Shown piece by piece: positions 1-20,000 of a DNA stretch of 20,000 nt. The stretch covers positions 48,577-68,576 of the forward strand of contig NGBS01001199.1 in the NCBI GenBank assembly GCA_002245135.1, written 5' to 3'. The position numbers were made by a program, and so were the translations under genes. The stretch is from Proteromonas lacertae. Taxonomy: Eukaryota. Each line of letters starts with the position of its first letter. The first letter of the stretch is position 1. The notes beneath the pieces are model-generated. The model worked only from the letters and a program-made list of their open reading frames with translations. It was not told the DNA's origin and ran no database searches.

Positions 1-857
1 GGGGAAGTACTTGCTGGTGTTGCTAGTCCAGAGGTTGTTGGATTGCCAGACAAGGAACTTACTATCGGTGAATTGAAGTAAGTGTATGAGGGTGTAGAAC
101 TGGATGATTGATTCTCTTGCTTTACCTTAAAGCTATCGGTAGTTACTTGAATATCATCTTTGGGAATAGATGTTGGGGTTGGTAATGAAGTAGGAACTGA
201 TGTAGCTGACACTGATGAATCAGATACAGAAGCTAGTTTAAGATCGTCAAGGATCTTATGAATGTAAGTGTCCTGACTCTTAACTTCATCGTTGAGGAGG
301 TTGCTAGAGTGCTTTATAGTTTCCAAGATCTTGTCCACGATCTCTGATGATAGACGTACTTCCTCGGGAGTGAGCTTATCAGCTTTTGCTTTAGTCTCTT
401 GAAGTAGTTGATAGTAGGAACGAAGATGTTTTCGTAAGTCAGCGTATATGGCTACATAGTCAATGATCTTGTCCTTGCTGCGGATGGACTTCAAGGTCTT
501 GGTTAAGTTCTTGATAGTGACATCTTTGGATGACTGTGCCGAGGAAGTTGTCTTGCCTCTGAGGAGCTTCTTCTTAAGTGTAGTGCTAGCAACAGTAGGA
601 GATGCCTTCGATGATTTAGATATTACTGGTGCCTTGAGTGCTAAGTGCTTATTAAGCTTACGCTTCTTGGAGTCATTGGAATTGGTGGATGACTTCATAG
701 CCTTACTACGCTTAGCAATTGAACGTGAATTCTTTACCTTTACGGGAGTGATGATAAGTACCTTGGACTTCTTATGAGTAGAAGTAGCCATAGGCTCACA
801 CTGTTGTAATTCAAGGCTAGAAGAAGTACGGGTAGATAATGCTTGTTGAGTATTCAT
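1..857 (-). CDS. Partial (>=285 aa) Lys/Ser/Thr-rich hypothetical protein, runs off window edge
   Basis: Hand translation from ATG at 857 (MNTQQALSTRTSSSLELQQCEPMATSTHKKSKVLII...KKRKLNKHLALK...) stays open to position 1. It is absent from the ORF track because no stop lies in the window. The 463..777 + ORF is its antisense shadow. Confidence 0.8.
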   Translation of the reverse strand, partial: MNTQQALSTRTSSSLELQQCEPMATSTHKKSKVLIITPVKVKNSRSIAKRSKAMKSSTNSNDSKKRKLNKHLALKAPVISKSSKASPTVASTTLKKKLLRGKTTSSAQSSKDVTIKNLTKTLKSIRSKDKIIDYVAIYADLRKHLRSYYQLLQETKAKADKLTPEEVRLSSEIVDKILETIKHSSNLLNDEVKSQDTYIHKILDDLKLASVSDSSVSATSVPTSLPTPTSIPKDDIQVTTDSFKVKQENQSSSSTPSYTYFNSPIVSSLSGNPTTSGLATPASTS

Positions 858-1388
858 AAGGCAAAGTCTCTCTAGGAGGATCAGAAAAAGTTAAATACAG
901 AGATGCCTGTTAAGATAAGTTCATCCCAAGAACAACGCCTGGTAAAAGTTAATCAAAGAGTATTTATCGATAGAAGAAGTTACTTAAGGTATAGAGTTCA
1001 TAGCAACCCAAAGAGCTATCAGCATCATCATTAGAAGGATGGTAATCAAGATACTTCGGATCAATCTACAACAACTACTATGCTCAATAGCTGGGTGATC
1101 TTCAAAAAACATCTGGACATTTAAGATAAGGAGGATTCAAAGGACGCTTACCAGCACTTCGTCATGACAGAAGAACTCACGGAAGCTATAAGTCCAGGAA
1201 CGACAACTTCTTTCAGCTATAAGCACTAAGCGATCAAAGTCAAAATCCATTGCTCGGTAAGATCCAAGGAAATGAACGATTAAGTAAATTGGTAACTCCC
1301 GCCGGAAGAAGTTCTGAAGTGTTAACAATTCCGAAGTGAGTTATGAATCGACATTCCCGGCATTGATCAATTTCCTTGCCTTTCAATC

Positions 1389-2261
1389 ATGGTCATCTCA
1401 ACTACTACTAGATCGATTGCTCCTTACCGTCCTCCTTTACTTATCGGTGAATCTACTCCCGAGAATGATCAACCTCAAATAGCCTCCATCAAAGCAATGC
1501 CTTATGAACACACTCACATGGAGTATAGCAACAGCCCGCAATTCGTCAATGGATTACCAGGACTCACCAGTCAAAAGAATCGATCTTCCTATAAAACAGC
1601 CTTCAATCAACTCTTAGGCATTGCTCATCCTTACTACTACAACCAGGGGATCTCCATCGCTATCCTCAAGACAATCATTGTACTTAACTTTGATGATACC
1701 TTATTCCCAACCTCCTATATGATGAAGAACTACTGAGAAGACTTCGATCAGAGATGTTCCCTTAACAACCTCGGGGTTGAAGATCATAGCATCATGCAGC
1801 AACTGGACTATACCATCGGTCAGCTCCTTATGCATTGTATGAGCCTATCTTCAAATCTACCGATAGTGATCCTTACCAATGCTACTCGAGATCATGTCTT
1901 TAACATCACTGAGAGATTTTACCCAGCCTATGTATATCAACTACTGCTCGATGAATATAACTTCTTCGTCCTCTCGGCAAAGGAACGATATGGACAATTG
2001 AGTTACAATAACAAGATGTGGAAGGTGGAAGCACTTCAATGGATCATGAACTACTACTTCGATGGTCCGATAACAAACTCCTGGGAAGATGACTTTGCCG
2101 TCAATGTTCTATCAGTTCCAATCCTTAAGAAGGCGATTCAACTAGAAGTTGGCCAGGCTGCTGATGGTAAGAAGCTCATTGGTACCATAGAGAAGTTGAA
2201 CCTCAACCTTACTTCCTTCTGTAGAGATCTCCGATCCTTCCACGTCCACTTAAAGAAGTAA
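1389..2261 (+). pseudogene. HAD-superfamily-like protein (DxDDTLFPT type), interrupted by one in-frame TGA at 1734-1736
   Basis: ORFs 1389..1736 and 1794..2261 are in the same frame and the gap reads EDFDQRCSLNNLGVEDHSI. Motifs IIVLNFDDTLFPTS, IVILTNA, VLSAKERY and WKVEAL match the pattern I recall for this HAD family of protists and large DNA viruses. Confidence 0.75.
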
Positions 2262-2272
2262 TTACTTAGACT

Positions 2273-2361
2273 TTGTTTATTGTTTGTTGTCTTGGGGATT
2301 GCTTAAATAACACTAAGCGTCCCCGTAAATGATCTCCTCAAGACAACAAGGCAATGAACAA
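2273..2361 (+). terminator. ~26-bp hairpin just downstream of the HAD-like gene, between convergent genes
   Basis: 2273-2298 pairs with 2335-2361 with 3 G-U pairs and one bulge on the + strand. It starts 12 nt after the stop codon. Confidence 0.55.
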
Positions 2362-2440
2362 TTGTAAAGACACTTCAAAGGAACCTCTAAGAACAACACC
2401 GAGATAGAATAGAACAAGAGATTATCAGGTTTAAGTAATG

Positions 2441-3007
2441 CTAGTTAGTCCTCACCTGAGGATTCAACATCCGTAGCTTCAGTAAGGTCAAGATCACTGA
2501 GAAGATATTCAGTAAGTACTTAACCTTCAAGGTTGGCTGGAGGAAGTCCATGTACTGCTTCATCTTCTTACTAGCAGTAAGCTGCTCGATGTCTTAGCCA
2601 AGGAGATACTTCAAGGTTCTTAATGCACCAGAGTAGAGGATAAGTGGCATGTAATGGCCCAGTGGGATGTATCCATAGTCTTCTTCCTTGCTATTGTTGT
2701 ATCTGATAAGCTTACAGCCTTTCTTCATCCTGGTCATGATATGTCTTGGACCTTTAAGTAAAGTCGTAGGAAGCAGATTGAGCTTCATAAGGTGACAATG
2801 GAACTTGGCAGAAAGGTTCTTAAAGTATACACAGTCATCATCAGGAGTAGGATCGGTATACCTGCTCATCACTCCGAGATTCCTTATCTGTTGCTTCATG
2901 GAGATGAGGTACATCTTGATGAACTCATCGGAAAGATCCTGGTTGTCATCCTTCTGGTTAAGGATCACGTACTTAGCGTCTTCATTCAAGGTGATCTCCT
3001 CCGACAT
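2441..3007 (-). pseudogene. Hypothetical protein, probably with a premature TAA at 2594-2596
   Basis: ATG at 3007 (MSEEITL...). After the TAA the same frame stays open for 50 more codons (DIEQLTASKKMKQYMDFLQPTLKVK...) to TAG at 2441-2443. Confidence 0.5.
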
Positions 3008-3043
3008 GTTTATAATCAAGGTAAGTTATCACAGACACTAGCT

Positions 3044-3319
3044 TTATCGGGTATTGTCAGCTATGAAGTCTCTTACCATGTCTATGATCTCAGCATTGAA
3101 AGGATCATCATCATCGTCTTCATCCTTGGAGTTAGTGATTGTAAGTGAAGATTTATGAGGTTTAGGAGGGAAAGGAGGAGGAACATCATCATCAACAGCA
3201 ACAGCCATCTCAGCCTTCAACTTCTTATACTCCGACTTAAGCTTAATTCTGAACACCTTAGTGTCTTTCTCATCGCTAGAAGATTCCTCTAAGGCATTGA
3301 TAGGTCTGGTTCTCTTCAT
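3044..3319 (-). CDS. Small hypothetical protein with acidic and Pro-rich tracts
   Basis: ORF track 3044..3328, first ATG at 3319. Contains PPPFPPKP and DEDDDDD tracts. Preceded by the TTTTCTGATC motif. Confidence 0.6.
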   Translation of the reverse strand: MKRTRPINALEESSSDEKDTKVFRIKLKSEYKKLKAEMAVAVDDDVPPPFPPKPHKSSLTITNSKDEDDDDDPFNAEIIDMVRDFIADNTR

Positions 3320-3354
3320 GATATTCACAGATCAGAAAAGACTCAATGGAGATT

Positions 3355-3554
3355 TTAACAATTGTAAAGTCCCTGTTCCACGATTCTATTAAAAGCCCTT
3401 ACAAGGTCACTAGCGTAGCAAGGAGACTCTAGATCGTGATTAGATTCATTGTCTTTAGATGGCCAACACTTGTAGATAGCTTCCAAGAGTCCCTGTAGGA
3501 GATAATCCTGTAAAAGATCATCCCGTAGGAAATCGTCCCGTAGGGAAGAAGACC
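3355..3554 (+). repeat. Diverged direct copy of the right sub-terminal region of element B
   Basis: Shared blocks TTAACAATTGTAAA, GTTCCACGATT, ATTAAAAGCCCTTACAAGGTCAC.AGCGTAGCAAGGAGA and CCAACACTT.TAGATAGCTTCCA.GAGT.CCTGTAGGAGAT match 12380-12541. CCYGTA motifs follow. Confidence 0.9.
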
Positions 3555-3769
3555 TACAATTGATTAATTAATCGATGTTATTACTTCATGGCATATTTGA
3601 TGAAAATCATCCGCCATTTAATGCTGAGAAGGATAAATCCTATGAAATTTTGTGTACTTGCTACACATTATATGATCTGCTTAAATTAACAATAATATTT
3701 AATAAACTGAAAAAATTACATGTCTTAATAAAGATTTAAATAAGATTTTCTGATAAAAAAATCGATTGA

Positions 3770-5482
3770 TCACCAAAACAACCATGTGAAGTCACTGTCA
3801 AGAATATTGTTGTTACAGAGTCTGAAGAAGAGAAAATTAGAGCGCTGGTAAATCAATCTTGTAGTATTGGAGAAATTGCCTTAAAAATGGCAAGAACCAA
3901 GAGTAGTATTTGGAAGTACTTACAAATTATGGGGTTGAAGACAACCAAAGCCAAATCAAGTATTTCACCACCTAAGGTTAGAAGAGGGAGAAAGCCAATT
4001 ATTTTAAACTGTATCATTAGTGGGCAAGCTGTTAGAGATTATATCTTGAGAAGTCAAGATAATGGCATTACAATTCAATCTGCCAAAGCACTCAGAAATG
4101 TGCTACTGAAGAACAGCTTAATCCCCTTATCAGTATCATTAAGTACAATTCGTCGTTACTGTAAATTATGGAAGATCTATTTTGGAAATAGTGGAGTTTG
4201 TCCAAGCTTGACCGAAAAGAACGTTGAAGAAAGATTAATGACAATATCTCAAAACATATTCTTGGATAATAAGACGATTATGTTCTCAGATGAGTCGATG
4301 ATTAGACTTGAAATGTTAAAAGTGTTGGATTAATTATCACTGAAAATGTTATTAAGTATGGGAATATATTCAAAGATAACGTAACTAAGGGAATAAATTC
4401 AGTTAGATATTGTCGATTTTTAAAGAAAACTTTACCGCCTCTAATTAAACAGCATCCATTAGTAAATCATCAGAGACAATGTTATTTCTTACAAGACAAT
4501 GTCAGCATACATAAAAGTAGTTATACCACAGAATATCTTCTGTGCCATTTGTCATAGTTGGCCATTTGTCTACCAGACACTTTTAAAACAAACTAAATGT
4601 ATATTCTTACTTGTCTTGATGAAAAATTGTTACTTTTATACTTACTTTGTTATATGACCTACCTCTGCAGTAAACTTTTTTGTTAATATAAATAGTTTAA
4701 ATATTTGCGCCATTTGTTTTCTAGAAATTTTTGAATCAAACTAAATGCATATTTAGCTAATATAGACTAAAATCCATTAGCTGAAATGATTAGAATATAA
4801 TAATTATTAAATCTTTCTATATAAAAAAGAAATGTAAAAAATAGGCTTGAGTGAGGCTTGATTCTATATTTTCTATTTTCATTTTAAATGTCTTATGATC
4901 AACATTAAGTTGTTCTAATCATTTCAGCTAATGGATTTTAGTCTATATTAGCTAAATATGCATTTAGTTTGATTCAAAAATTTCTAGAAAACAAATGGCG
5001 CAAATATTTAAACTATTTATATTAACAAAAAAGTTTACTGCAGAGGTAGGTCATATAACAAAGTAAGTATAAAAGTAACAATTTTTCATCAAGACAAGTA
5101 AGAATATACATTTAGTTTGTTTTAAAAGTGTCTGGTAGACAAATGGCCAACTATGACAAATGGCGCACAACATCTTCAAAGGAACGGTTGAAAACCTATC
5201 AGACATCCACCGTTTTCTCCAGACTTAAATCCTATTGAAAAGGTCTGGGCAACTCTAAAACACAAGATTAGTGAAGATGAAAACAATTTCAAAGACTTAG
5301 ATAGCCTAGAAGAAGCTGCAAAAAGAATTTGGAATGAAATAATGTCAAGCCAAGCCACCAGACATAAATATGCTTTTAGATATCGTGAAGTATGTATGGC
5401 ATGTCTTTACAAACAGGGTGACTTCGTTCTAGACAATGACATTAAACGAATTAGAAAGATAACAAACATCCCAGAAGAGTAA
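3770..5482 (+). pseudogene. IS630/Tc1/mariner DD34E transposase pseudogene, split by a MITE
   Basis: HTH-like N-terminus (SIGEIALKMARTKSSIWKYL; VSLSTIRRY) and catalytic motifs IMFSDES, FLQDNVSIH and HPPFSPDLNPIEKVW. Removing 4541-5177 rejoins the frame with 34 residues between D and E. Frameshifts and a TGA are present. Confidence 0.92.
4541..5169. mobile_element. 629-bp foldback MITE with ~255-bp TIRs and 8-9-bp TSD
   Basis: 4541-4795 is the reverse complement of 4913-5169 except for a 2-bp indel near the tip. The spacer is 117 bp. Flanks are ATATCTTC (4533-4540) and ACATCTTC (5170-5177). Confidence 0.93.
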
Positions 5483-5631
5483 TTAGCCTAAAAGAAGGTT
5501 TTATATAATTTTTGTAGGGGATTTTCATTTGATTTTATGTTGGCCAAAATTAATACATATAATATAGTAGCCATTTAAAATATTAAATCAAAAGAATTTC
5601 AACTAGTTAGCGTTTAAAATAATTCGAAGAA

Positions 5632-5842
5632 TATATAGTATATAAATGGGACTCTGGCATATTGTACCATAGTCCCATTTACGTAAGGTTCCTACGGGAT
5701 TCCTCCTAACAGGGTCTACTTCTCAACAGAGTCTACTTCCCTACGGGAACTCCTCTAAGCTATTTCTATATCTATCTATGAGACGATCTCCTACGGGTAC
5801 TCCTGGAAGCTATCTAGAAGTGTTGGTTACCACGAGGTGATG
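5632..5842 (+). repeat. Left terminal inverted repeat (211 bp)
   Basis: Its reverse complement aligns to 12485-12888 apart from two extra segments in the right copy and a few substitutions. Confidence 0.95.
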
Positions 5843-6007
5843 GTAATGAAGAAGCAGTGATCTCTTTCGGAGTATGGGTAAGAACGTCTCAGAGGAAGCT
5901 TCCTTACCAAGGACGATGTTGCGGAGCAATATCGGACTTGGATAGGAAGGTTCCGTCGTAGACGTTCTTGTCCATGCCCGGAAGAAGAACTGCTTTCTTC
6001 ATTACCA
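5841..6007 (+). ncRNA. Putative 167-nt rod-like structured RNA/ssDNA element
   Basis: Nested pairings TGGTAATGAAGAAGCAGT/ACTGCTTTCTTCATTACCA, GTATGGGTAAGAACGTCT/AGACGTTCTTGTCCATGC, CCAAG/CTTGG and CGATGTTGC-GGA-GCAATATCG, with several G-U pairs on +. Confidence 0.5.
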
Positions 6008-6271
6008 GGATCATTGAGAAGGTACTTTCATTTGATCATCATCCAGGGTTGTTGAATCTCTTGGAGTTGTTGCTGCCCAACAAAGCAAGGTAAACTATTT
6101 GCACCATGGTTGGGCAGCTCCGAAGGTGGTCACTGACTATAGTTATCCTCTTGCTTAGACTTCCTCTATCTATCTATTACTTTCTCATAATAACAGTCTA
6201 GGTATCGGCTTCTCCTGTAATGTTTTTGATCAATCCCAAGACAGAACCTTATCAGGTAAAGCTTACTATCA

Positions 6272-8746
6272 TTAGCTGAATAAGGAAGTACAAATGAATG
6301 TTGTAGTAGCTGTAAATGAAACAGAACCATTGTGATTGTTGGTGTAGTTGAAGTTATCATAGCCATTATAAACGAAGTAGTGCCAGTATGCTGTTGAGTC
6401 TGTACGTTTTATCTTATAAGTCCAGTAAGTGTTTCTCTTATCGAAATGGAAGACCTTTCGGAACTCAACGAATTCTTTCTTATCAGGGTCGGTGAATGCA
6501 ATGCCGGCATAGGCATTAACATCCACTGATCTTCCGCTAGTCGTTGTCATGGTAAGCTCAATTCTATTTGGATAAGCAGTTAAAGTTCCCTTCATAGGCC
6601 CACCATAGCCATACTGTAAAACATCCATATCAATATTGATCGCCCTAGCGATTACCAGATCTTGACTCTCAAGGACATACTTCCACATTGAAGTCAAGGT
6701 CTCATTTATCTGATTAGCTACCGTGGTAATCTCCGATGATCCATCTCCTTGAGATGCCAGGCTTTCTACTGATGTCTTCAACTCCGTTAACTTCTTCTGG
6801 ACGTCCTGAACATTGCTATCGACTGAGTTGATCTTACTTAATTGAGCTGCACTGGTAAAGTTGTTTACTTGAGTCACAGCCAGGTTGTTTAGGTTGTTGA
6901 CTTTGCCTTGGACTTCAATGACTCTTGTCTGGCAGTCTCCTATCTTTGAATGTACTTCATTGACCTTGGTTAATTGAGCTGGTGAACAGAAGCTATTGAC
7001 ATTCCCGGTATTGAATCCATCGATCTTGGTTCTGATAGCAGCTGCATTGTTGATAGCTGTATCGATCAGTCCTTTACGAGTATTGTTAAAGAAGCCATCC
7101 AAGTTCCTTCGTAGGTTGTCTTCTTCAGTCCTTCTAGCCACGCCGCAGGTTGCATTCACATCATTGATACTTAGAGAATCCACCTTGATCTTGATTGCAT
7201 CGGTGTTGGCCTTAGTTGTATCAATGAAGTTACCACGACCTTCAGTACAGAACTGGTTAATACTCTCCTTGTTGAGGTCATGGACACGTTCATAACACTT
7301 ATCTATCTTCTCCGATCGATCCGAAGTACAGAAGTGCTTCACAGCAGTGTTGGTCTCATCGATAGCAGCACTTCTCGGGATAGTACAAAACTCCTTGATC
7401 GCGTTGTCAGCATCGTCGATCTCCTTAGTTCTCTTATCGGTAATGAATCCTTTGATCAGTTCCTCAATGCTCTTGACAATGGTAAGTCTCTCCAAGGAGC
7501 AGTAGTTGTTAATGTCTTCGATGGCTATGCCGGTGATCAGCTCATGGACTTTATCAATCTTCTCCTTCTGTGAGCTACTACAATACTGGTTGATATCATC
7601 GATATCTATCTTACTTACAATATCCTTGGTCTTGTCAATAGCGGTAGCTCTCTCCTCAGTGCAGAAGGTATTCGTCTTGTCAGCTTCTCCATTCAACCCG
7701 GCGATCTCTTCCTCCATAGCATTCATCTGGTTCTTAAAGTCCTTGTTGTAACCATTGGCAATCTCAATCTCTTGTAAGACCTCCTTGAACTTAATCATGT
7801 TGTTGTTAATCACAGTATTGATTGCCTTGTACTCCTCGTAGTTGTTCTTCATCTTGATCAACTCCTCAGAATCTACTTTGATCTGCTTCTCTAAGTCAGT
7901 GAGCTTCGTAAGGCTCTTATCATCCACCGTAGTGATGTACTTGATCATATCATAGACGTTAACATCCCCGATGTTGAGACTCTCACATAATGACTTCAAC
8001 AAGGTACTGAGACGATCCAATTTCTCATCCTCTGATCCCTTCAATTGATCGATTGAAGTATTGGTGGATTCAAGGGCATTGCTTACATCCTCCATGCTCT
8101 TATACAACTCTGGTAATTGCTTCTCCGTGTACTGCTTAAGTTCATTGCTGCAAGTAGCAATATTGCTCAAGGTTGTAATAGTCGTATCTCCGAAGTCTTT
8201 AGGGATCTTGTTGTTAAGTAAAGTACCTAGGTTCTTAACTTCCTGGAGCTTCTGATCGATACCTTCAATCTTATCAGTCTCATCTAGCACTTCCTTTAAG
8301 GTCGATTGAATAGCTTTATGATCTGGTTGTAAGGTACCTTGAAGGTACTCATGGAGTTGTTGATGATCAGTCTCTAGCTTAGCCAACTTCGTAGATGACT
8401 CCTCCGAGTGATCATCCAACTTTCTCTTGATAGCTGTTGTGGATGAGGTTACTTCTTCTTGTTGCTTCTGATTGATACTGACGGGTGTTCCTCGGAGGAC
8501 TTCTTGGATAGTGCTTACCAATGGAGGATTGATCTTATCATAGTCTATCACGGCCTTGAGTTCACCAGAACCCAAGGCCTTTTGAATCACTTCCTGGGAG
8601 TCTTGAAACAACATGTCCTTATCATACTTAGCAACAACCTTCCCATCTATCTTTTGCTTCACATCGTAAGTAGTCTTGTCGATAGTATTAAGTAACCTTA
8701 ACATCTCCTCATCGTTCTCCCGTAAGTTGTTCCCGGTGTTGAACAT
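6272..8746 (-). CDS. 824-aa coiled-coil repeat protein with beta-rich C-terminal domain; putative virion fibre/receptor-binding protein
   Basis: Intact long ORF with a helical coiled-coil body, about 11 repeats of (F/Y)C(T/S)xx(R/Q)xxxID, and an aromatic, Thr/Asn-rich last ~110 aa. The function is inferred from architecture only. Confidence 0.85.
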   Translation of the reverse strand: MFNTGNNLRENDEEMLRLLNTIDKTTYDVKQKIDGKVVAKYDKDMLFQDSQEVIQKALGSGELKAVIDYDKINPPLVSTIQEVLRGTPVSINQKQQEEVTSSTTAIKRKLDDHSEESSTKLAKLETDHQQLHEYLQGTLQPDHKAIQSTLKEVLDETDKIEGIDQKLQEVKNLGTLLNNKIPKDFGDTTITTLSNIATCSNELKQYTEKQLPELYKSMEDVSNALESTNTSIDQLKGSEDEKLDRLSTLLKSLCESLNIGDVNVYDMIKYITTVDDKSLTKLTDLEKQIKVDSEELIKMKNNYEEYKAINTVINNNMIKFKEVLQEIEIANGYNKDFKNQMNAMEEEIAGLNGEADKTNTFCTEERATAIDKTKDIVSKIDIDDINQYCSSSQKEKIDKVHELITGIAIEDINNYCSLERLTIVKSIEELIKGFITDKRTKEIDDADNAIKEFCTIPRSAAIDETNTAVKHFCTSDRSEKIDKCYERVHDLNKESINQFCTEGRGNFIDTTKANTDAIKIKVDSLSINDVNATCGVARRTEEDNLRRNLDGFFNNTRKGLIDTAINNAAAIRTKIDGFNTGNVNSFCSPAQLTKVNEVHSKIGDCQTRVIEVQGKVNNLNNLAVTQVNNFTSAAQLSKINSVDSNVQDVQKKLTELKTSVESLASQGDGSSEITTVANQINETLTSMWKYVLESQDLVIARAINIDMDVLQYGYGGPMKGTLTAYPNRIELTMTTTSGRSVDVNAYAGIAFTDPDKKEFVEFRKVFHFDKRNTYWTYKIKRTDSTAYWHYFVYNGYDNFNYTNNHNGSVSFTATTTFICTSLFS

Positions 8747-9961
8747 TGCCTAGGTAATGATTCCAAATCAGAACTTTACTTATAGATCCAGGAGCTACTT
8801 TACTAATATGACTTCTCAGGTATCTGTTATATCATAACATGCCCTGGCCTTCAACAGCTTTGCCTACCTCCCGAGAAGTACCTTGTTAACTCTATCCACA
8901 CGATGAACTTCAACTCCTTACGATTACTAGCTGATGGATGTAGATGACTTTATCGGTCTTTGTAATGAGTTGCGTGATCTCTATGCTGTGAACTTCATAG
9001 TCTCGATCATCATCTACCATCTTAACTTACAATGCTTCTATTCGGATAAGACTTATACGATAGTCAGAAGCCTCCTTTGTAGTTCAACTACTCTCCGTAG
9101 ACTTCATTTGCACCTTTGACTTCCAAGGATCTACTAATCGTCTCTCTATTCCAGATGCTCCTTTACCTTCTTGGACTTCTCGGACGTGATAGACATTGCC
9201 TATGAAGTACTTTGTCTTCACTCTTGGTTCTAGCAGTCTATGATCCACTGCTATGGTAAGTACCTTGAGACTGATTGCTGAAGTTAGAGTTGATCTCATC
9301 CTTAACATCTCTTGAAGAACTACTTGTGATCTTTACCGATACATATCTCTTGAACTGATGGTAACCCTTCAAGTGACAATTCCTTCTAGTTCTAGTTCAT
9401 CGAAGTTGTTGATCCTCAGTAATGTACTAGCCTTCAGTCTGATCACTACTAGTCTCGGTATTGTTGAAGTCAGTGTCTTTACCTATCTACTATTAATCAC
9501 CTTACGATCGATAGCTTATAGACTCTTGGACATCAATGCCAGTGTTGCTACTTGAGGAGTATACGATATCTCTGCTCTACTTACTTGCTTACTAGTAATG
9601 ATTCCTAGCATCACAAGTAAGGACTACTTAGGTAAAGGATTATCCATCACACTTCCTATAGTCTGCAATTGTAACTCTTTATGTACCTACAACTACTTCA
9701 TGATCTTCAGAGTCATTGATCCAAGGATGTTATCTTGGGGGTTGTTGATGTCCTTACTATCATTGACTTATCCGAGACTCCTTTAGTTTATTTAATTGAT
9801 TACTTACCATGTCCTTGAGTTGCTCATCTCCGTAAGGCTCCTTGAATTGATTATTTCTATTGTCCTCGGTCATACCCAAGGTAACATTTTACTAAGTACC
9901 AACAATGTTAATCACGTTCCTTATCAGGAGATGCGTTTACTACTACTACTACTTGTGGAAG

Positions 9962-10741
9962 TTATGATGACTTTGCCTGGTAAGGAGTTGCTTCAGAAGC
10001 TAGCTTCAGATGCTTCGCTGGAGGATCACTTGAAGCAGCTCGCGATGGTACTGAGGGTGTTGTTATTGGTCTCTTCTTCGGAGGATTACTAAGCTGTTTT
10101 TGTCTCCTCATTGATTCTATCCTGAGTCGGAGATGATCTTCATATTGTCTTAAGCGATGATACAGACTCAAGAGACAGCACATCGGAAGTGACTTTACCT
10201 TTAGATCTACGTGAAAGTTGATGTGTCCATCTTTGATAGATAAAACTATCTTGGCCTGGCAAGACTTCTCTTTGAGGTGAGCAGCATCACATAGAAATGA
10301 AATAATCTTATCGAACATCCCATCATGGTCGATTAGATCATTGTTGTCCTTGATTGTCTTAAGAATCTCATGTATACTGTGTTGCATAAGCTGATTAATT
10401 ATATCCCTTGTTTTATCACTGGAGTTGATGGAGATTCCTGGTTGTTGATTCTTAGTAGGTTTCCCAGATCTACATCTTGGACAACATCGATAGTAGTCTC
10501 CATTGGGCTTTAACATCATCGATGAAGCGAAGTGCATATGGCATCTACTGCAGGACATAGTCTTGGCTATGAGTTCACTGTTCTCTTCCAAGGCTTTACG
10601 TTCCTCATGGCATCGGGCTATTGTCTTCTGCTTTGCCTTTCGCAAGAGAGCTCTACAAGAACTACAACAGCTGTATGCTCTTCCATCAGCTTCAGATTGG
10701 AACTCCTTCTTACATCGACTACATTTGACGATGGATTGCAT
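9962..10741 (-). CDS. Protein with two CxxC...CxxC Zn-ribbon repeats and a basic low-complexity tail
   Basis: Repeats CSRCKKEF...YSCCSSCR and CSRCHMHF...NGDYYRCCPRCR. First ATG at 10741. NLS-like PPKKRP near the C-terminus. Confidence 0.8.
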   Translation of the reverse strand: MQSIVKCSRCKKEFQSEADGRAYSCCSSCRALLRKAKQKTIARCHEERKALEENSELIAKTMSCSRCHMHFASSMMLKPNGDYYRCCPRCRSGKPTKNQQPGISINSSDKTRDIINQLMQHSIHEILKTIKDNNDLIDHDGMFDKIISFLCDAAHLKEKSCQAKIVLSIKDGHINFHVDLKVKSLPMCCLLSLYHRLRQYEDHLRLRIESMRRQKQLSNPPKKRPITTPSVPSRAASSDPPAKHLKLASEATPYQAKSS

Positions 10742-10807
10742 GGTTACCAATTAAGTATAAAAATAACTAGAAATATCTTAATGCCTTGAGTGACTGTAAT
10801 AATAGAC

Positions 10808-10934
10808 TGGTTACTACATATTGATCTCATGGTTATTAGGTACTTGTTTATTAGCTTTACTTCTATGAGTACTTATTCATATCTATGAATGATGCTTAGT
10901 AGATAGTCTGTAACTTGGTTACTACATACTGATC
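10808..10934. repeat. Pair of 19-bp direct repeats upstream of the Zn-ribbon gene
   Basis: TGGTTACTACATA(T/C)TGATC at 10808-10826 and 10916-10934. Confidence 0.7.
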
Positions 10935-11299
10935 ACTTAGATAAGCTATTGGAATTTAGCAACTAAGTGCAGGATCTATTTTCTATGTCCCTATTTTTAA
11001 ACCTTATTTACGATGTCCTTATGTCCGGTCAGTTCAATTTTTCTTGGCCTTATCAGAGTTGTGAATGCACCTCCAACTCCTAGGCTTCTTGTAGTAGGGG
11101 TCACTCAATGCTTCCTAAGCTCCTGCTGTTGATCTCATTCCAGTGTTAGGGTATCTAGTACTGTACTTTATAGTGAACTGTTGATTACAGATTCATCTCT
11201 ATTCAATTTTTTCTTTGCAGTTTGGATCTCTAATGTGGTTGATGATGGTTTTGATAGATACTAGAAGGCCATGTAGGCTGTGGTATGGATTTTATGCAG

Positions 11300-11371
11300 T
11301 ATCAGCGGTGGGGTTCGAACCCGGAGGGGATGGGATGTTGGTACCTGGTCTGCCCACTAGGGCATCTTGAA
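11300..11371 (-). promoter_or_regulatory. tRNA-like A-box/B-box (Pol III type-2 promoter or tRNA-Leu relic)
   Basis: Minus strand TTCAAGATGCCCTAGTGG...GGGTTCGAACCCCACCGCTGATA, with the boxes at canonical tRNA spacing. It does not fold into a cloverleaf. Confidence 0.45.
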
Positions 11372-11669
11372 CTTGCTTATGGATTGCTGATCCTAGTATA
11401 TGTATTGTTCAGCTACAGTATTTAGTGAATAGCTTCAGAATGATTCCTATTCAATCTCCATTGGACAGATGATGGGGAATTGACCTTAAGAAATTGCTCA
11501 TTAGCTTACCTCCAGTAACATCTCTAACAAGTGCTCAGGTAAGTTCCTACTTATCCTAGGCTTCCCAATCACGGTATCCACGTTTCTACGATTGCTTAGA
11601 TGATGATGCTGTCCTCGGGAATGAACTTTACCTTCAGGAATAAATAAACTAAACTGGTATGTAAGGAGC

Positions 11670-12321
11670 TTCCTAGTAGATGACTTACAAGGTCAATGGA
11701 AGATAGCTACAGAACCCTCCCGAGATTGTTTATCACGATCTTCAAGGCCTTTGAGAAATTCAGAACTAGCTGGAGCCTCTTGAATTCAAGTCTTAGAAGG
11801 ACAATGAAACTTACCTAGGCAATGATCCTGTGGATGTTCCTTGACTTTGTAATGAAGTCTCTCTTGATGGAAGTTCCATGGCTTTGACGGGAGGTTCCTC
11901 CTTGAGTTACAACTCAAGGAGGAACATCCCTTCCTTGCTAGATGATAGTTGAATGTTACCTAGTTGAATTATAAGGCCATTGTAACTTACCTCTAGGAAG
12001 CTCCCGAGAATGCTTACAATAATCTTCAAGGCCTTGAGAAAATCCAGTACTAACCAGAACCTCCAGTTGTAAAGTCACTGATTAATAGAAGAACCATCAA
12101 GACCTTCCCAGATACGTCCAGCCGTGCATGACTGCGTCAGGGAATCTCCCATCGTGGGAGATTCCCTTCCTTGCCAACACGGCTGTTCTTCTCGGGAAGA
12201 TCTTGGATGAACTTACCTAGGAGAGTTATAAGGATGATAAAACATACCTTCAGAAGCCTTCCGAGATTGCTAATCATTATCTTCAAGGGCCTTGAGAAAT
12301 CCACAACTAGCTAGAACCTCC
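11670..12321. repeat. Three diverged ~110-bp direct repeats separated by hairpin-containing spacers
   Basis: Core ATCTTCAAGG(G)CCTT(T)GAGAAA at 11738, 12022 and 12279, each preceded by TCC(C)GAGA.TG and followed by ACTA.C..GA.CCTC. Confidence 0.85.
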
Positions 12322-12324
12322 CGA

Positions 12325-12394
12325 GTTACCATTTGGTAACTTGTTAACAATTGTTAACTTGTTAACAATTGGTAACAAGTTAACAATTGTAAAC
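12325..12394. repeat. Array of eight GTTAAC-like palindromic hexamers (18-bp period)
   Basis: gttacc attt ggtaac tt gttaac aatt gttaac tt gttaac aatt ggtaac aa gttaac aatt gtaaac. Confidence 0.9.
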
Positions 12395-12484
12395 TCCCGG
12401 TTCCACGATTGGTTTCCACGGTTCAATTAAAAGCCCTTACAAGGTCACCAGCGTAGCAAGGAGAGTCAAGAGCATGATTAGAAT

Positions 12485-12888
12485 CATCACCTCGAGGTAA
12501 CCAACACTTCTAGATAGCTTCCAGGAGTACCTGTAGGAGATCGTCTCATAGATAGGTATAGGTAGGTATAGGAAGGTATTGATAGGTATAGAAATAGCTT
12601 AGAGGAGTCCCCGTAGGAAGTAGACTCTGTTGAGAAGTAGACCCTGTTAGGAGGAATCCCGTAGGAACCTTACGTAAATGGGACTATGGTACATTATGCC
12701 AGAGTTCTAACGAGTTTTCTAGGAGTCCGTCCCCTTCTAGATTCAGAGTTGACCTTTACGGGAGCTTCATCGATGCAATCGATGAAGCTCCCGTAAAAGT
12801 CAACTCTGAATCTAGAAAGGGACGGACCCCTAGAAAACTCGTTAGGACTCTGGCATAATGTGCCAGAGTCCCATTTATATACTATATA
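12485..12888 (-). repeat. Right terminal inverted repeat (404 bp)
   Basis: Equals the left TIR plus a 164-bp palindromic segment and three extra 10-bp GATAGGTATA-like units (12551-12590). Confidence 0.95.
12675..12877. repeat. 203-bp terminal palindrome (100-bp arms, GCA loop)
   Basis: 12675-12774 versus the reverse complement of 12778-12877 gives 6 mismatches and no indels by eye. The loop GCA is at 12775-12777. Confidence 0.95.
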
Positions 12889-13240
12889 GAAGAAGGATTT
12901 GGATTTTAGGCTCGAGCTTGACTTAATTTATTTTGTTAAATAGAAAGAGATATGTAATCTTATATTTTCAAAATTATATATTATGATGTTTTTATTTATG
13001 ATATATTAGAAAAATCAAATAAAAAACAAAAGAAAGTTAAAAAAAATGAATCGAAAGGGTTTTTTGAAACTACTATTTTGCTTTATGAAATGAACGCATA
13101 GAATTACTGAGGAGTTTTGGTGAGTGAAAAGCACAACGAAAGTCACAAAACACGAAAGTGACGTGTTTTTCCTAACCCAGAAAAATACACTAAATATGTA
13201 TGATATTATTAATAACATAAAATAACTATGAAAATATATA

Positions 13241-16200
13241 TTAACCTATGAAAGACTTTCTACTTGAAGAAAAGGATGTTCTTGATTTTCTTCTTCCAGC
13301 TGGAGATATTGTTGACATTGACATTCTTCTTTGAGTATCTTTCAATGTTGCTTCTATACTCAATTCTATACTTGCTGCATCTAAATCTGTGTTAAAAGTA
13401 CTTCGAATTGAACGATAAGCATTTGATAATTCACAAGATAATTCTTCAAATTTATTTCGAACATCATTTACATATAAATCCATTTCACTATCCTCAAATC
13501 GATTCTTTATTATTGCTTTTCCTTCTTCATCAATTATCTTTATTTCTTTCGATGATAAAGAGAATATTGTCTCTAAATTGGATGTGGCATTCAATATTCG
13601 ATATAAATATTCTTTCGATGTCAAACCATTCTCTCCTTTTATATGATTTACTGCATCATATAAATCAAAATAGGCATTTAATAAATTGTACGAAACTGTA
13701 AAAGCTTTCGAATATTGACTTATTTCTTCAGCTTTATATTGTCGAAGTTCATGTCGAATTAATTCTATTGTTTCTTTCTCATCTTCATTTTTCTCATCTA
13801 ATACATCATATTTCACCATTGAATTTACAAATTGATAATCAATATAAGTTCTTAAACTATTCCAAGAATCTTTTTCTGGAACTTTTATATCTGTTCCTTC
13901 ATAAGTTAAACCATTTATAAATTGAGCTTTTGTTAAATAACCTAATAAATAGAAACATCCCATTAATATTCTCATTGGATTATGTGGTGGTGGTTGATCA
14001 TATTTTCGAATCTCAGCATAAGAGGCTTTTGCACTCATTACAGCTTGACGAGCCAATCCTACACATCTTTTTAATTCAGCGATTTCAGGAGTTTCATATA
14101 CTTCAGGCTTCTTTAATACTTTCTTCATTTTCTGAATTTCTTTATATAAATTATCATACAATTCTTTTTGATGAATTCTTTCTTCTTCTTTTCTTTGACA
14201 ATCTTCTTCTAATTCACTTACTTTACTTTTTAATTCATTTATTTCATTCAATAATTTCTTTGTATTTTCTTTACAACATTTCCAACCACTATCATATTCA
14301 TCTCTTTCTAATTTTATCTTTTCTAACTCTTCTGCTAATTCTTTTATCCTCTTTTTCATTTCTTCTATTTCTTCACTCATATCTTTATTATTATTCTCTA
14401 ATTCTTCTTTCTTTTCTTTCATTTCTTCGAATTTTTCATTTTTCTCTTTCAATACTATCACTTCTTTCTTCAAACTATTTAAATCATTTATATAACTTTC
14501 ATCTAACATCTTATGGACTGTATCTAAATGATTTCGAATATTTAATGTTTTTAAGGATAAATCATTCATTCCTTTCATTGTTGCACTTGTCTTTTTACTA
14601 TTCAAATCTAATTCGTTCAATTCTTTTACATTATTCTTATTATCTTCAATTTCTTGTTTTATTTTCAAAGAATTGATTTTTATTCGTTTTACTATGGCTT
14701 TATTACATTCTTCATTCTTTTCTAATTCTTCTATTGTTTTCATTATTTCTAATATTGAATTTTCATTTAATTCTTCTTCTTTATTTATTAATTTCTTTAA
14801 TCGACCCAATTCTTTTATCTCATTTTTACTATCCATTTTATTACCATAGTCTTTTAGATTTTCATTTAAACTGTTTAGTTTATTATTACAATCTTTACTG
14901 TTCTCTTTTAATTCATTCATACTTTTACGAATCTCATTCAATTCATTTACATCTATTTCTTCATCTCCTTCTTCCATTCTTTTAATTCTTTCTTCAATTT
15001 CTTTCTTTAACTTCTTATTATTTGATATTCTCTCTTCTAAGTCATTTATCTCATTTCTATATTTATTTATCTCATTTTCATCAGGATTTTCACTTTCTTC
15101 TAATTCTTTTAATTTCTCTTTCAATCCTTTCAATCTTTCTTCCATTTCATCATTCTCATTGTCAATTTCATTTAATTCATTCTTTAAACTATTTAGTTCA
15201 TTCATCCTATTCTCTTTACTCTCTTTTACTTTTTCATTTAACTCATTTATTTCATTTATAAATACATTATTATGGCTTATATTACATAACTTGTTTAATA
15301 TCTTTTCTCTCATTTCTTTTCCTTTCTTTTCACTTTCTAATATATTCTTTCGGATTTCTTCTAAGTTTTGACTATTTTCAGATGTATCTAATAAATAATC
15401 TTCTATATCATTCTTTTCTTTCTTTAATTCTTCTTCTATTTCTCCTATACATCCTTCTGTTTCATTTAATAATTCATCTAATTCTTTTATCTCTTCTTTT
15501 CCATTCAATAACTCATTTTCATCACACAATTCTATACTCTTCTTTAATTCTTCTTTTATATTCTTCAACTTCTCATTATCTTCATTTAATATATCAATTC
15601 TTTCATTCATTTGATCGATCATTGTTGCTTCATCTAAATCACCTTTTTTTAAACCATATCCATCTAAATATTTCTTTGTTTCTTCTAATTCTTTCTCAGC
15701 TTCTTCTAGTTTCTCTTTTGTTTGATTCAATTCTTGGATTTTTCTGTTTAATTCATTCTCTAAACTATCTAATCTTTCTTTGTCAAATGTAAATTCTTCA
15801 TTTCTTCTTTCACTTTCTTCATTTAATTGATTCATTGCTTGTTCTAAATCTTTCTTTTCTTCTTTCAACATCTTCAATTCATCTATCAATTTACTATTGT
15901 CATTTTCATTTATTAACATCTCATGATTCATATTGCCTAATTCATTCTTTACATAATTCAATTTATCATTTATTTTCTTTTCTTTTTCTTTATTCTCTTT
16001 GAATAATTCTTTTCTCTTTTCTTCATCATCCATTTCTTCTATTTCATTTATTAAGTCTTTTCCTTCTTTGATTTCTTTTTCTATTTCTTTCATCTCATTT
16101 TCTAAATTCTCTAATTTTTCTTCATATTCTTTTATTGATTTTTCATCCATCAATTCTTTACTCTTTAATTCATCACATTTCATTCTATTCTTTTCTATTT

Positions 16201-19200
16201 GATCTTTACAATCATTATATTCATTTTCATAATTCTTATAATTCTCTTTGGCTTTTAACAATTCTTCTTCATTCTTTAACCAATTGTTTATCTCCTCTTC
16301 TTCTCCGATTTCATTCATTCGATTTTCTATTTCTTCTAATTCTTTATCTAATTTCTTTATATCTTCAGTATTTTCTTCATTATTGTCTTTCTTTAATGAT
16401 TTTAAGGTATTGTCAATTTTCTTTAATTGATTTTCTAATTCTTTCATTTCTTCTCCATTTCTTTGTAATTTCTCTTTTTTATCCTTTAATTCACTTTCAT
16501 CTTCAATTTCATAGTTAGCTAATAGTTCATTGCATTTATTCTCCAATTTCTTATTCTTTTCTGTCATTGACTTCAACTTCTTTTCATCCTCATTTATATC
16601 ATTATTCATTCTGTTAATTATATTATCTTTTATCATATTTAAATCTTTCTTTAATTCATCTTTCTTCTTTTCTATTGTCTTTAACTTCTTATTTAATTCA
16701 TTTTCTCTTTCACATATTTCTTTCATTTCTTTTTCACTATTTCTTCTTCTTCTCTCTTCATTTCCTTCTTCACCTTCTTCTTCTTCATCATCATCATCAC
16801 CTCTGTTCATTGATTCATTCATTATTCTCTCATTTAAATCATTCATATCATTTTCATATTTCTTTAAATCATTATCTAATTCTTCTATTCCTTCTAAATA
16901 GGATTCTTTCTTATTCATATTCTCTCTTTTACTTTTATCGATTAATTTACATTTGTTTAAGAAGTCATCTTCATCTAATTCATTAAAACTATCATTCAAA
17001 TTGGAGATATTTTCATTCATCTCATTTAATAACTTCTCATTTTCATTCTTTTTGTTAAATAATTCTTTATCTCTCTTTAAATCTTTCATTTCTTTTTTAC
17101 ATTCACTCAATACATCTTTTATCTCATCTAATTTATTGTCTAATTCATTATATTTATCACCTTTTTCATCTTCTTTACATTTCTTTAATTCATTCACTAA
17201 TTTGTCACTTTCTTTTAAACCATTCTGTATTCTTTTATCTTTTTCTTTTATTTCTTTCAGCAAACTTTCATTTTCCATATAATCTTCATTCTTTGATTTT
17301 TTCATTTCTTCTTCCTCTTTATTTATTTCTTCTTCCAATTCTTTTTCATCCTCTTTCAAAGTATCAAGGTAATTCTCTATATATTTGGTATTTAATTCAT
17401 CATAATTCTTCATTTTTTCATTCAATTCATTTAATTCTTCTCTCAGATTTTCTAATTCTTCATTAAATCCATTCTTTTTCAATGAAGCATCTTCTTCTTC
17501 TTTCACCAGTATTTCATTGTCATTCTTTAAATCATTCAATAAATTATTTACTTCTTTCAATTCTTCTCTAATTTTATTGATTGATTCTTGTTCATTCTTT
17601 ATTATCTCATTCTGTTCATTCACTTCTTCGTCACTCAAAGAGTATAATTCATTATTTACATTTTCAATATCTTCTTTTATTACATTCAGTTTATCTTCAA
17701 TTTCAGCTTCTTTACCTTTTAATTCTTCATATTTAGAATCACTCATATTATCATTATTATTATTATCTTCTTCTTTTAAATCTTCAGTTTTTTCTTTCAA
17801 TCTTGTTAATTCATTTGTATATTCATTACATTCTTTTTCTAATTCTTCCATCTCTTTCTTCATCTTTTGTATTTCTTCTTCATTGGATATTGACAGTTTG
17901 ATTTCTTTCTCTTTCTCCTTTAATTCATTCATTCTTTCTTCTATTTCTTTTAATTCACTTTCTAAATTCTTTAAACTTTCAACATCACTTGTTTTTATAT
18001 TTTTACTCTTCTTTTCTAATTCTTTTTCTAGTTTCATCAACTCATTTTCTATTTCTTCCATTTCTTTCTTATTTCGATTGTTTATTATCTCATTCTCACT
18101 CAAATTCTCATTATTCATTTTATTACTATCTTTTAACTTCATTATTACTTCTTTTGTTTCATCATTCTTTTCTCTCATTCTTTTCAATTCATGTTGATCT
18201 TCTATTGATTTATGTATTAGTTTATTCAATAAGTCATTCTTCATTTCATCTAAATTCTTCTTCAATAAACTCTTATTCAAATTACATTTCATCATCTTTT
18301 CTCTTAATCCTTTTAATTCTTTCAATTTTTCTTCACCTTCATATTTCTTATTGATTTCTTTTAATTTACTTCGATTCTCTTCACTTTCCTCATTCAATCT
18401 ATCACAACTATTCACATAAACTCATTTTCTTTACATCTTCATCACTTTCTTCAATATCATCATATATTTTACATTTATCATTATAATCTTCTTCATCAAA
18501 TTCATTATACTCATTTTTCATTTCTTTTAAATCACTTTTCATCTTTTCTAATATTTTATCCATATTATTCAGATTATTCTCATTTTTACTACTACACACT
18601 CTTTCCATTTCATTTAATAGCAATATGTTATTCTCATTCAATTTATCTTTACATTCTCCTAAATGACTCTTTGTTATATTCATTTTATTACTTATTTCTA
18701 TTAATATGGAATTATCAGCATTTGGATCTGTTTCATATCTATCCATTAATTCCTTTTCTTCTTCTACTTCTTTTTTACATTCATCTAATAATGGTTTTAC
18801 AAATGATAATATCTCTTTTAATTCTTTTACTTCTTCTTTCTCACACAATTCTTCATTCAATTCATAATTTTCATATAATTTTTCTTTCATTTTTAACTCT
18901 TTTTCCACATTTTTCATTTCTTTTTCTAACATCTCTATTTCATTATTCAAATATTCACCAACTAAACTACTATCATCATTATTTGGTTTTAACATTATTT
19001 CAGATATTGTCTTATTTGCTTCTTCTAATTGAGTTGATAAATCTTCTATTTCTTGTTTATCATCTTCTATTCGATTATTTGCATTATATAAATCATTTTC
19101 TAATGACTGAATCTTTTCTTTATATCTCTCTAATTCATCATTTATTTCTTCATTCTTTCTTTCTAATCTATCAACTTCTTCATTCATCATCTCATTTCCA

Positions 19201-20000
19201 TCATTTAATTCATTCAAAGCATTTTTGGCTTTTTCTAATTCTTCCATTATTTTTAGAGGATCATTTTCTATTAATAAAAACTCATTTGACATATTACACA
19301 AAGTGGAATCAATATCATTCAATCTTTCATTTATTTTCTTTTGATTTTTTTACTTTCATTTAATTCTTTCTTACAATTACATTATCTTCACCAATCTTCA
19401 ATTCTTCTAGTTTTATCTTTTCATCATTTATCATATCACCAATTTCATTTAACTCAGCTTCCATTTCATTCAACTTCTTATTTCTTTCTTCTACTTTCTC
19501 TTTATCAGTATTTTCATTCTCTTTTATATTCTCATATTGATCTTTACATTTGTTTAACTTATCATTGATTTCTTTGTATTTATTTTCTAGTTGTTCTAAG
19601 TTATTCTTTTCTTTTATTAATTCTTTCTCTAAATCTATATTATCTTCTAATTCTTTAGATTTATCTTTCAATTCTTTCACTTTTCCATCTAATTCATCTA
19701 AACCATTTTTGAGATTCTTCAAATTCTCAACTGAGATTTTACTCAAATCATTCTTTATTGTTTTCTTTATTTCATTTTCTTTTTCATCTAATCTCTTTCC
19801 TAAATCTTCTATTTCTACTTCATTAATACGAATCTCTTGATTACATTTGTTGGAAAACTCATTATCATTATGTGGATCATATTCAAATTTTTAATGATTT
19901 CTTCTCATCTTCATTTTCTTTCTTCAATTCTTTTAAATCTTCTTTTATTGTAGGTATTTCACTTAACATCTTATTGTAAAGATTAGATTTCATTAACTCT
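13241..20000 (-). CDS. Giant Glu/Lys/Asn-rich host coiled-coil protein with a C-terminal dynein-stalk-like microtubule-binding domain (5' end outside window; frame breaks)
   Basis: ORFs 13241..18415, 18408..19322 and 19360..19746 have the same composition and join through small frame breaks near 18415, 19345, 19380 and 19890. The C-terminal AEIRKYDQPPP..RILMGCFYLLG..SWNSLRTYI..FVNSMVKYD resembles the dynein MTBD. Confidence 0.85.

Follow-up and report, generated by a model that had tools for sequence, protein, structure and literature searches.

A non-autonomous 7.26-kb element with long inverted repeats and a 6-bp target site duplication in Proteromonas lacertae

How does a 7.26-kb DNA element without a detectable gene for its own mobility come to lie between two perfect copies of its target site in the genome of Proteromonas lacertae? 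The element is located in a 20,000-nucleotide stretch of contig NGBS01001199.1 (assembly GCA_002245135.1, positions 48,577 to 68,576 of the forward strand), which is referred to as the window and whose numbering is used throughout. An earlier note on this DNA had proposed an integrated virus-like element that serves as a non-autonomous satellite or genome segment, is mobilized in trans by a Polinton-like virus (PLV) and contributes a receptor-binding fibre. In the work presented here, the anatomy of the element gives good support to two points of this proposal, namely that it is non-autonomous and that a retroviral-type (rve/DDE) integrase inserted it in trans. As to its affiliation, we tentatively favor a non-autonomous member of a PLV/virophage-type family that depends for its movement on an rve integrase acting in trans, and we give this reading not quite an even chance. 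The weights attached to this and all other readings are judgements and were not computed.

Boundaries, target site duplication and base composition

5632-12888: whole element, 7,257 bp, 41.2% GC, termini 5'-TATATAG...CTATATA-3'
5626-5631: left copy of the 6-bp target site duplication (TSD), GAAGAA, abutting the left terminus
12889-12894: right copy of the 6-bp TSD, GAAGAA, abutting the right terminus
5632-5842, plus strand: left terminal inverted repeat (TIR), 211 bp, with an 11-nt TATATAGTATA tail and a small imperfect hairpin at 5643-5681
5691, 5740 and 5790: three CCTACGGG sites in the left TIR, spaced by 49 and 50 bp
12485-12888, minus strand: right TIR, with octamer sites at 12530, 12610 and 12658
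12675-12877: right-end palindrome, 203 nt, two 100-nt arms (94 of 100 positions complementary) and a 3-nt loop

Both termini read TATATAGTATATAAATGGG inward, with GAAGAA directly outside each; judged from the composition of the flanks, the chance of a six-out-of-six match at a fixed offset is about 0.0007. The TIR arms match in 205 of 210 aligned columns (97.6% identity, five mismatches), the alignment gaps amounting to 164, 30 and 1 nt. The 7.26-kb element with TIRs and an exact GAAGAA duplication that had been described before was thus recovered at 5632-12888. A staggered insertion over 6 bp is suggestive of a retroviral-type DDE enzyme that acted in trans. The 2.4% divergence between the arms, together with the perfect TSD, suggests that the insertion is young, provided that the arms were identical on insertion.

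The GC content lies above that of the host, as had also been stated: it is 41.2% in the element versus 24.0% in the host coiled-coil gene on the right and 31.2% in a Tc1-like element on the left, and it is uniform across the element (40-42%), non-coding DNA included. A/T trimers reach 0.46 of expectation in the non-coding DNA of the element and 0.48 in a sister element at the start of the window (described below), compared with 1.03 in the Tc1-like neighbor and 1.58 in host intergenic DNA. Lysine codons AAA and AAG are used in a ratio of 10:65 in the element versus 179:79 in the host gene, and the dinucleotide distance is 59-90 between the element and its sister versus 114-135 between the element and the Tc1-like element. 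Because the composition is foreign and uniform, also in the non-coding DNA, it is unlikely that the cargo is captured host DNA.

Runs of A or T are avoided outside genes too in 1-3556 and 5632-12888, 4-mers occurring at about 0.3 of expectation, unlike in the host DNA and the Tc1-like element.

Asymmetric ends and the enzyme of insertion

The ends of the element are asymmetric, as the palindrome is present at the right end only. It stops 11 nt inside the terminus, and the segment 12660-12888 folds far more stably than expected (z -25, none of 200 shuffles as stable). The left TIR equals the right TIR minus 164 nt, which are bounded by short direct repeats at the stem base, and minus 30 nt of simple repeat; two mismatched bases of the palindrome stem are retained at the left end. 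We infer from this comparison of the arms that the long, right-hand form is probably ancestral and that the left end may have collapsed through slippage or during assembly. The assembly may carry errors because the host gene to the right of the element has frame breaks near 18400, 19340 and 19885, which suggest either assembly errors or a pseudogene.

Nine copies of the octamer CC[CT]GTAGG are present in the window versus 0.35 expected, three of them in each TIR arm and three in the end of the sister element. The integrating enzyme may bind at these octamers. Neither the asymmetric ends with the 203-nt palindrome nor the three octamers per end nor the sister element had been mentioned in the earlier note. 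In one scan with the end motifs five loci came up, which proved to be chance matches of 17-20 nt without tblastx support.

Which kind of enzyme carried out the insertion is the point at which a first alternative has to be considered. The element could be a cargo-carrying, non-autonomous cut-and-paste transposon of the IS3EU/GingerRoot type that obtains its DDE transposase from an autonomous copy and never passed through a virus stage. We regard this as rather unlikely, though as an explanation to be taken seriously. Repeated subterminal octamers would fit ends that are bound by a transposase. TA..TA termini combined with a 6-bp TSD are the published signature of this group: every complete IS3EU family and 72 of 77 GingerRoots are stated to have them (for this group see PMC10045372, PMC6839031, PMC12730594, PMC8232023, PMC10853768). 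The size is also within the GingerRoot span of 3.9-12.9 kb, and Styx/REP9, an IS3EU relative of 7.9 kb with four genes and 6-bp TSDs, provides a precedent. On the other hand, GingerRoot TIRs measure 100-150 bp versus 211 bp with a 203-nt palindrome here, and the strings 'palindrom' and 'protist' are absent from the GingerRoot paper. According to the Repbase rule for non-autonomous elements, the terminal 11 nt have to match those of a known family. IS3EU elements of rusts end in TAYGG; this consensus, the only one compared, agrees with the TATAT of the element in three of five positions.

The proposal of trans mobilization by a Polinton-like virus stands as far as non-autonomy and an rve/DDE integrase acting in trans are concerned. 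The identity of the helper does not follow from the 6-bp TSD, which is not diagnostic given its occurrence in IS3EU/GingerRoot elements.

Gene content

6272-8746, minus strand: open reading frame (ORF) of 824 aa, intact and intronless
9962-10741, minus strand: ORF of 259 aa with two CxxC-(15/19)-CxxC Zn-ribbon motifs (Cys 7/26 and 64/87)
8750-9960, minus strand: stretch without a long ORF, with residual 3-base periodicity

As the earlier note had stated, there are only two convincing ORFs and about half of the element is non-coding: the 824-aa and 259-aa ORFs, both on the minus strand, cover 45% of its length. The assertion that genes for replication, integration and capsid formation are lacking agrees with our results. 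Remnants of an integrase, polymerase, capsid or ATPase gene were not detected in the element, and when the three non-ORF stretches were read through in all six frames, none of the 18 translations matched a Pfam family at E<=0.01. Alternative genetic codes (tables 4 and 6) did not open any convincing extra gene in the element, and exact-sequence look-up of six proteins from the window in a protein collection returned none of them.

The 824-aa protein consists of an N-terminal part of about 90 aa, a heptad coiled coil, about 11 degenerate repeats, a final coil and a beta-rich C-terminal domain of about 125 aa. The repeats possess an N-x-F-C-[TS]-like core with shortest spacings of 19 and 27 aa, and the protein periodicity is heptad in the first half and 3.8-residue in the second. 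No hydrophobic segment of membrane length is present. Codon periodicity is strong (z 63.9). The frame terminates in four successive stops that comprise all three kinds (6263-6274, minus strand).

The designation of this protein as a fibre could not be confirmed. Homologue searches yielded no relative, all matches from Pfam, PHROGs and NCBIfam were sub-threshold and the Pfam MATH domain was not matched. Single-sequence AlphaFold models are poor (predicted local distance difference test, pLDDT, 37 and 45). When such a low-confidence model was submitted to Foldseek, the top PDB row was SPOP (E 0.09), and 10 of the 45 rows listed were this one protein. Giant-virus TRAF4-like proteins were found at E 0.02 and E 0.0013, the latter as rank 3 in a search whose two best rows were phage proteins with root-mean-square deviations (rmsd) of 26-37 and which also matched a BTB protein with an rmsd of 4.9 over 89 columns. 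Rows for tail fibres had E values of 0.03 or weaker. Nearly all VIA-align rows match the coil or helical part. Viral fibres and TRAF/MATH proteins share a trimeric, shaft-and-head architecture. The weak fold matches lean towards TRAF/MATH rather than fibre for the C-terminal 125 aa or so, and a coiled coil with a MATH-like head can be put forward as a lead from these models.

The 259-aa ORF shows weak codon periodicity (z 1.0). Homologue searches with its product gave no match, and Pfam, PHROGs and NCBIfam gave sub-threshold matches only. The nearest Atlas clusters are mostly hypothetical proteins from basidiomycetes, with 0.86 below the lead threshold of 0.9.

The gene content bears on the IS3EU/GingerRoot transposon in both directions. 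Low coding density is in accordance with it, as is the sub-threshold lead to basidiomycetes, IS3EU being known in rusts. Cargo and frequent loss of the transposase are likewise familiar: gene fragments occur in 22 of 77 GingerRoots, and a DDE motif is kept in 6 of these 22, so that the transposase is absent in 16. However, GingerRoot cargo is described as host gene fragments with introns, whereas the element carries a complete gene of 824 codons that has no introns and departs from host codon use. A transposase remnant was found neither in the element nor in its sister. Altogether, the element differs from the IS3EU/GingerRoot reports, which concern plants, animals and fungi, by a longer TIR, a large palindrome and a whole gene that is not host-like.

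In 8747-9961, codon-like periodicity persists (z 6.0) and a long-dead gene may be present, even though the longest open frame there has 82 codons and does not exceed chance (simulated mean 78). The most open frame of 8750-9960 contains 14 stops in 310 codons, which is near chance. In 10751-12400 there is no coding signal (z -0.4 and -0.7) and no ORF beyond chance. With 1.2% neutral change, 26% of 300 simulated copies of the 824-codon frame were still open; with 5%, the figure was 0%. On account of this frame-decay simulation and of the stop-rich 1.2 kb adjacent to the gene, the interior was probably non-coding already before the insertion, while the 824-aa gene was kept.

This has a bearing on a second alternative, according to which a full-size Polinton-like insertion later lost its core genes by internal deletion and the 7.26-kb form as such never moved. 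The single visible copy and the 164-nt deletion at the left end could be taken in its favor; moreover, endogenous Mavericks are mostly degraded (PMC8097293) and TIR-bounded PLVs of 7-8 kb exist (PMC12220804 supplement). Yet the insertion looks young while 10751-12400 is devoid of coding signal and no core-gene fragment is present, although long pieces of ORFs should have survived if a gene-dense parent had suffered the deletion recently. We consider such a one-off remnant improbable; it is more probable that the element comes from a non-autonomous lineage than that it is the product of a new deletion.

A sister element with a related right end

1 to about 3556: right part of the sister element, 41% GC; its left end lies beyond the window and its exact right end is uncertain
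12380-12541, plus strand: block with about 80% identity to 3355-3503, where the sister has its right end
3492, 3522 and 3537: octamer sites of the sister
1389-2261, plus strand: sister ORF with the HAD-like motifs NFDDTL and IVILTNA and an in-frame stop at 1734-1736

The sister shares GC content, A/T-run avoidance and AAG-biased lysine codons with the 7.26-kb element. The common block spans about 100 nt that are specific to the right end and lie outside the TIR, and the sister end diverges from the TIR outward of the octamers. At least four small intronless ORFs are present in its 3.5 kb, all unrelated to the ORFs of the 7.26-kb element. Six-frame read-through of the sister region gave Pfam matches at E<=0.01 in none of six frames, and two sister ORFs had no homologue. 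Pfam, PHROGs and NCBIfam matched the sister ORFs below threshold only; the label HAD-like for the ORF at 1389-2261 is putative and based on its motifs, Pfam giving no support. The sister is thus a gene-dense relative with small intronless genes without known relatives, which we count for the PLV-type reading. Its left part beyond the window may hold helper genes. At least four ORFs in 3.5 kb also exceed the two proteins given for IS3EU and in this respect speak against a transposon of that type.

Homology of the sister to the TIR ends near 3556 at ...CCTA and is followed by CAATTG and a near-palindrome (3537-3575). The sister may terminate here in TA, next to its duplication, or may have been truncated. 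Octamer-like units in the sister are spaced by 15 bp, and a hairpin (2270-2360, tile z -4.6) is located 3' of the HAD-like ORF.

Two elements with related ends and different genes also recall a multipartite integrating DNA virus, of which the 7.26-kb piece would be a genome segment or packaged satellite that supplies the attachment fibre. In line with this, the sister shares the right-end block and the octamers but no gene, non-coding DNA surrounds an 824-aa gene that is itself intact, and bidnavirus segments have matching termini (PMC8502044). Against it, the window does not reveal any segment with a capsid, polymerase or integrase gene, the sister end has no more than about 80% identity and departs from that of the element outward of the octamers, and the function as a fibre is putative. 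Furthermore, families of non-autonomous transposons would just as well be expected to combine common ends with differing cargo. We judge the segment very improbable, and we think no better of a variant in which a multipartite or satellite virus combines hairpin-ended TIR units, a shared octamer end code, complementary genes and a trimeric fibre with a TRAF/MATH head.

Comparison with known systems

The element shares with Polintons/Mavericks a 6-bp TSD, TIRs of hundreds of bp and a short tandem motif at the extreme end; in Mavericks, such motifs have been linked to jumping-back priming (PMC8097293). It deviates from them in size (7 kb compared with 15-25 kb), and no pPolB, integrase, ATPase, protease or capsid gene was detected in it. 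In PLVs and virophages, the rve integrase makes 6-bp TSDs, the GC content differs from that of the host and fibre-like genes are carried (PMC12220804). TRAF-like genes are annotated in viruses related to PLVs and virophages (PMC8502044). Of the features used to recognize this group, the element possesses a TIR of at least 100 bp, a 5-6-bp TSD and a GC offset, upward in this case; it is missing the double jelly-roll capsid and the packaging ATPase, and its longest ORF encodes a coiled coil.

A related situation has been described for endogenous virophages and PLVs of Halocafeteria, which exhibit TIRs, TSDs, a GC offset and palindromes in the TIRs beside the TSD, and whose fragmented, core-gene-less copies keep TIR and TSD (bioRxiv 10.64898/2026.07.28.741278). 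These elements differ by an average length of 23-25 kb, a GC content below that of the host and a 52-nt palindrome, versus 7.26 kb and 203 nt at one end only in P. lacertae, and no sequence link between them and the 7.26-kb element was found. Endogenous viruses that lack core genes and end in palindromes have already been described, as have GingerRoots that carry genes, while the open-access titles and abstracts searched contained no account of this particular element.

Transpovirons are about 7 kb in size and carry Zn-finger genes, and the element resembles them in being of about this length, TIR-bounded, capsid-less and equipped with a Zn-ribbon ORF. The comparison, which the earlier note had drawn, fails on gene content: transpovirons encode a pPolB-S1H fusion and parasitize giant viruses (PMC13215967), whereas the element has no such polymerase-helicase gene, is chromosomal and is flanked by a TSD. 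It is outside both Polinton and transpoviron as defined and works like a trans-mobilized rve-integrase element.

Proposed mode of mobilization

For a non-autonomous member of a PLV/virophage-type family the following course of events can be envisaged. A full-size relative would supply the rve integrase in trans. The helper enzyme would bind the ends of the element, possibly at the octamers, and cut with a 6-bp stagger. Signals for replication or excision might be provided by the TA tandem at the terminus and by the palindrome of 203 nt, and the left end would have arisen by a slippage deletion of the palindrome. Other genes were probably lost from the interior before the present insertion, whereas the 824-aa gene, predicted to specify a trimeric coiled coil with a fibre- or TRAF-like beta head, may have been retained under selection.

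A number of observations weigh against this affiliation. Polintons and Mavericks end in (AG)n or (AGT)n (PMC8097293, PMC6839031, PMC6431247) and not in TA, TA..TA termini are shared with IS3EU/GingerRoot elements, and terminal bases of PLVs and virophages are not tabulated in the covered rows of the PMC12220804 supplement. The median coding density in the PLV/virophage groups is 77-94% (PMC12220804 supplement rows), well above that of the two ORFs here, and the GC content of PLVs is below that of the host (PMC12220804), opposite to the element. Neither a viral hallmark nor a homologue was found for any of its ORFs, and the near-chance number of stops weakens the case that 8750-9960 was once a gene. 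The element ends were not recovered in end-motif scans of viral and metagenome contigs, and a single copy is visible within the 20-kb window. Finally, upon folding, the 3' tail past the right palindrome is unpaired; therefore, simple self-priming does not follow.

Should the element indeed belong to a PLV/virophage-type family, a virus-derived element devoid of core genes would still move on borrowed enzymes and keep one large accessory gene. Such an element would parallel phage satellites in a eukaryote and would allow one to test why defective endogenous viruses persist. Should it be an IS3EU/GingerRoot transposon instead, such transposons would carry whole foreign genes and occur in a type of host beyond plants, animals and fungi. 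On either reading, a 6-bp TSD together with long inverted repeats is no proof of a Polinton.

Internal repeats and hairpins

5845-6003: imperfect hairpin of 159 nt just inside the left TIR, at the left end only
11677-12327: three degenerate direct repeats of about 110 bp (starts 11677, 11961 and 12218), 68-75% identical to the first
11886-11933: hairpin between the 110-bp repeats
12323-12396: palindromic array of GTTAAC-type units, 74 nt

The earlier statement that the non-coding DNA is structured applies to the regions near the ends, that is to 5845-6003, to 12660-12888 and, in a scan with 160-nt tiles, to the tiles at 11841 and 12321. It does not apply to the middle, where none of the 19 tiles from 8801 to 11840 had a z below -1.8; fixed tiles of 160 nt can miss a hairpin that straddles two of them, as is the case for 5845-6003. 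When folded by itself, this hairpin reaches -50.7 kcal/mol (z -12.4, none of 200 shuffles as stable). A clear strand bias for G-U pairs is not apparent (five G-T versus two A-C), and Rfam returned generic miRNA-hairpin rows only, below gathering scores. The 110-bp repeats were also considered as peptide repeats, which was rejected as variable columns are distributed 14/13/17 over the codon positions without bias.

Flanking DNA

13241-20000, minus strand: host gene for a very long E/K/N-rich coiled coil
3770-5482, plus strand: broken Tc1/mariner-like transposase (HTH_Tnp_Tc3_2 E 8e-4, DDE_3 E 2e-7), 31% GC
about 4541-5169: insert resembling a miniature inverted-repeat transposable element (MITE) in the Tc1-like transposase, with inverted arms of 274 nt at 97% (4531-4804 / 4904-5177)

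The host protein gave no Pfam match and no homologue; by eye, its C-terminus resembles what we take to be a dynein microtubule-binding stalk motif. The Tc1/mariner-like transposase sits between the sister and the 7.26-kb element. Each arm of the MITE-like insert holds an internal 53-nt repeat, and what appears to be an 8-nt duplication, its copies differing by one mismatch, borders the insert.

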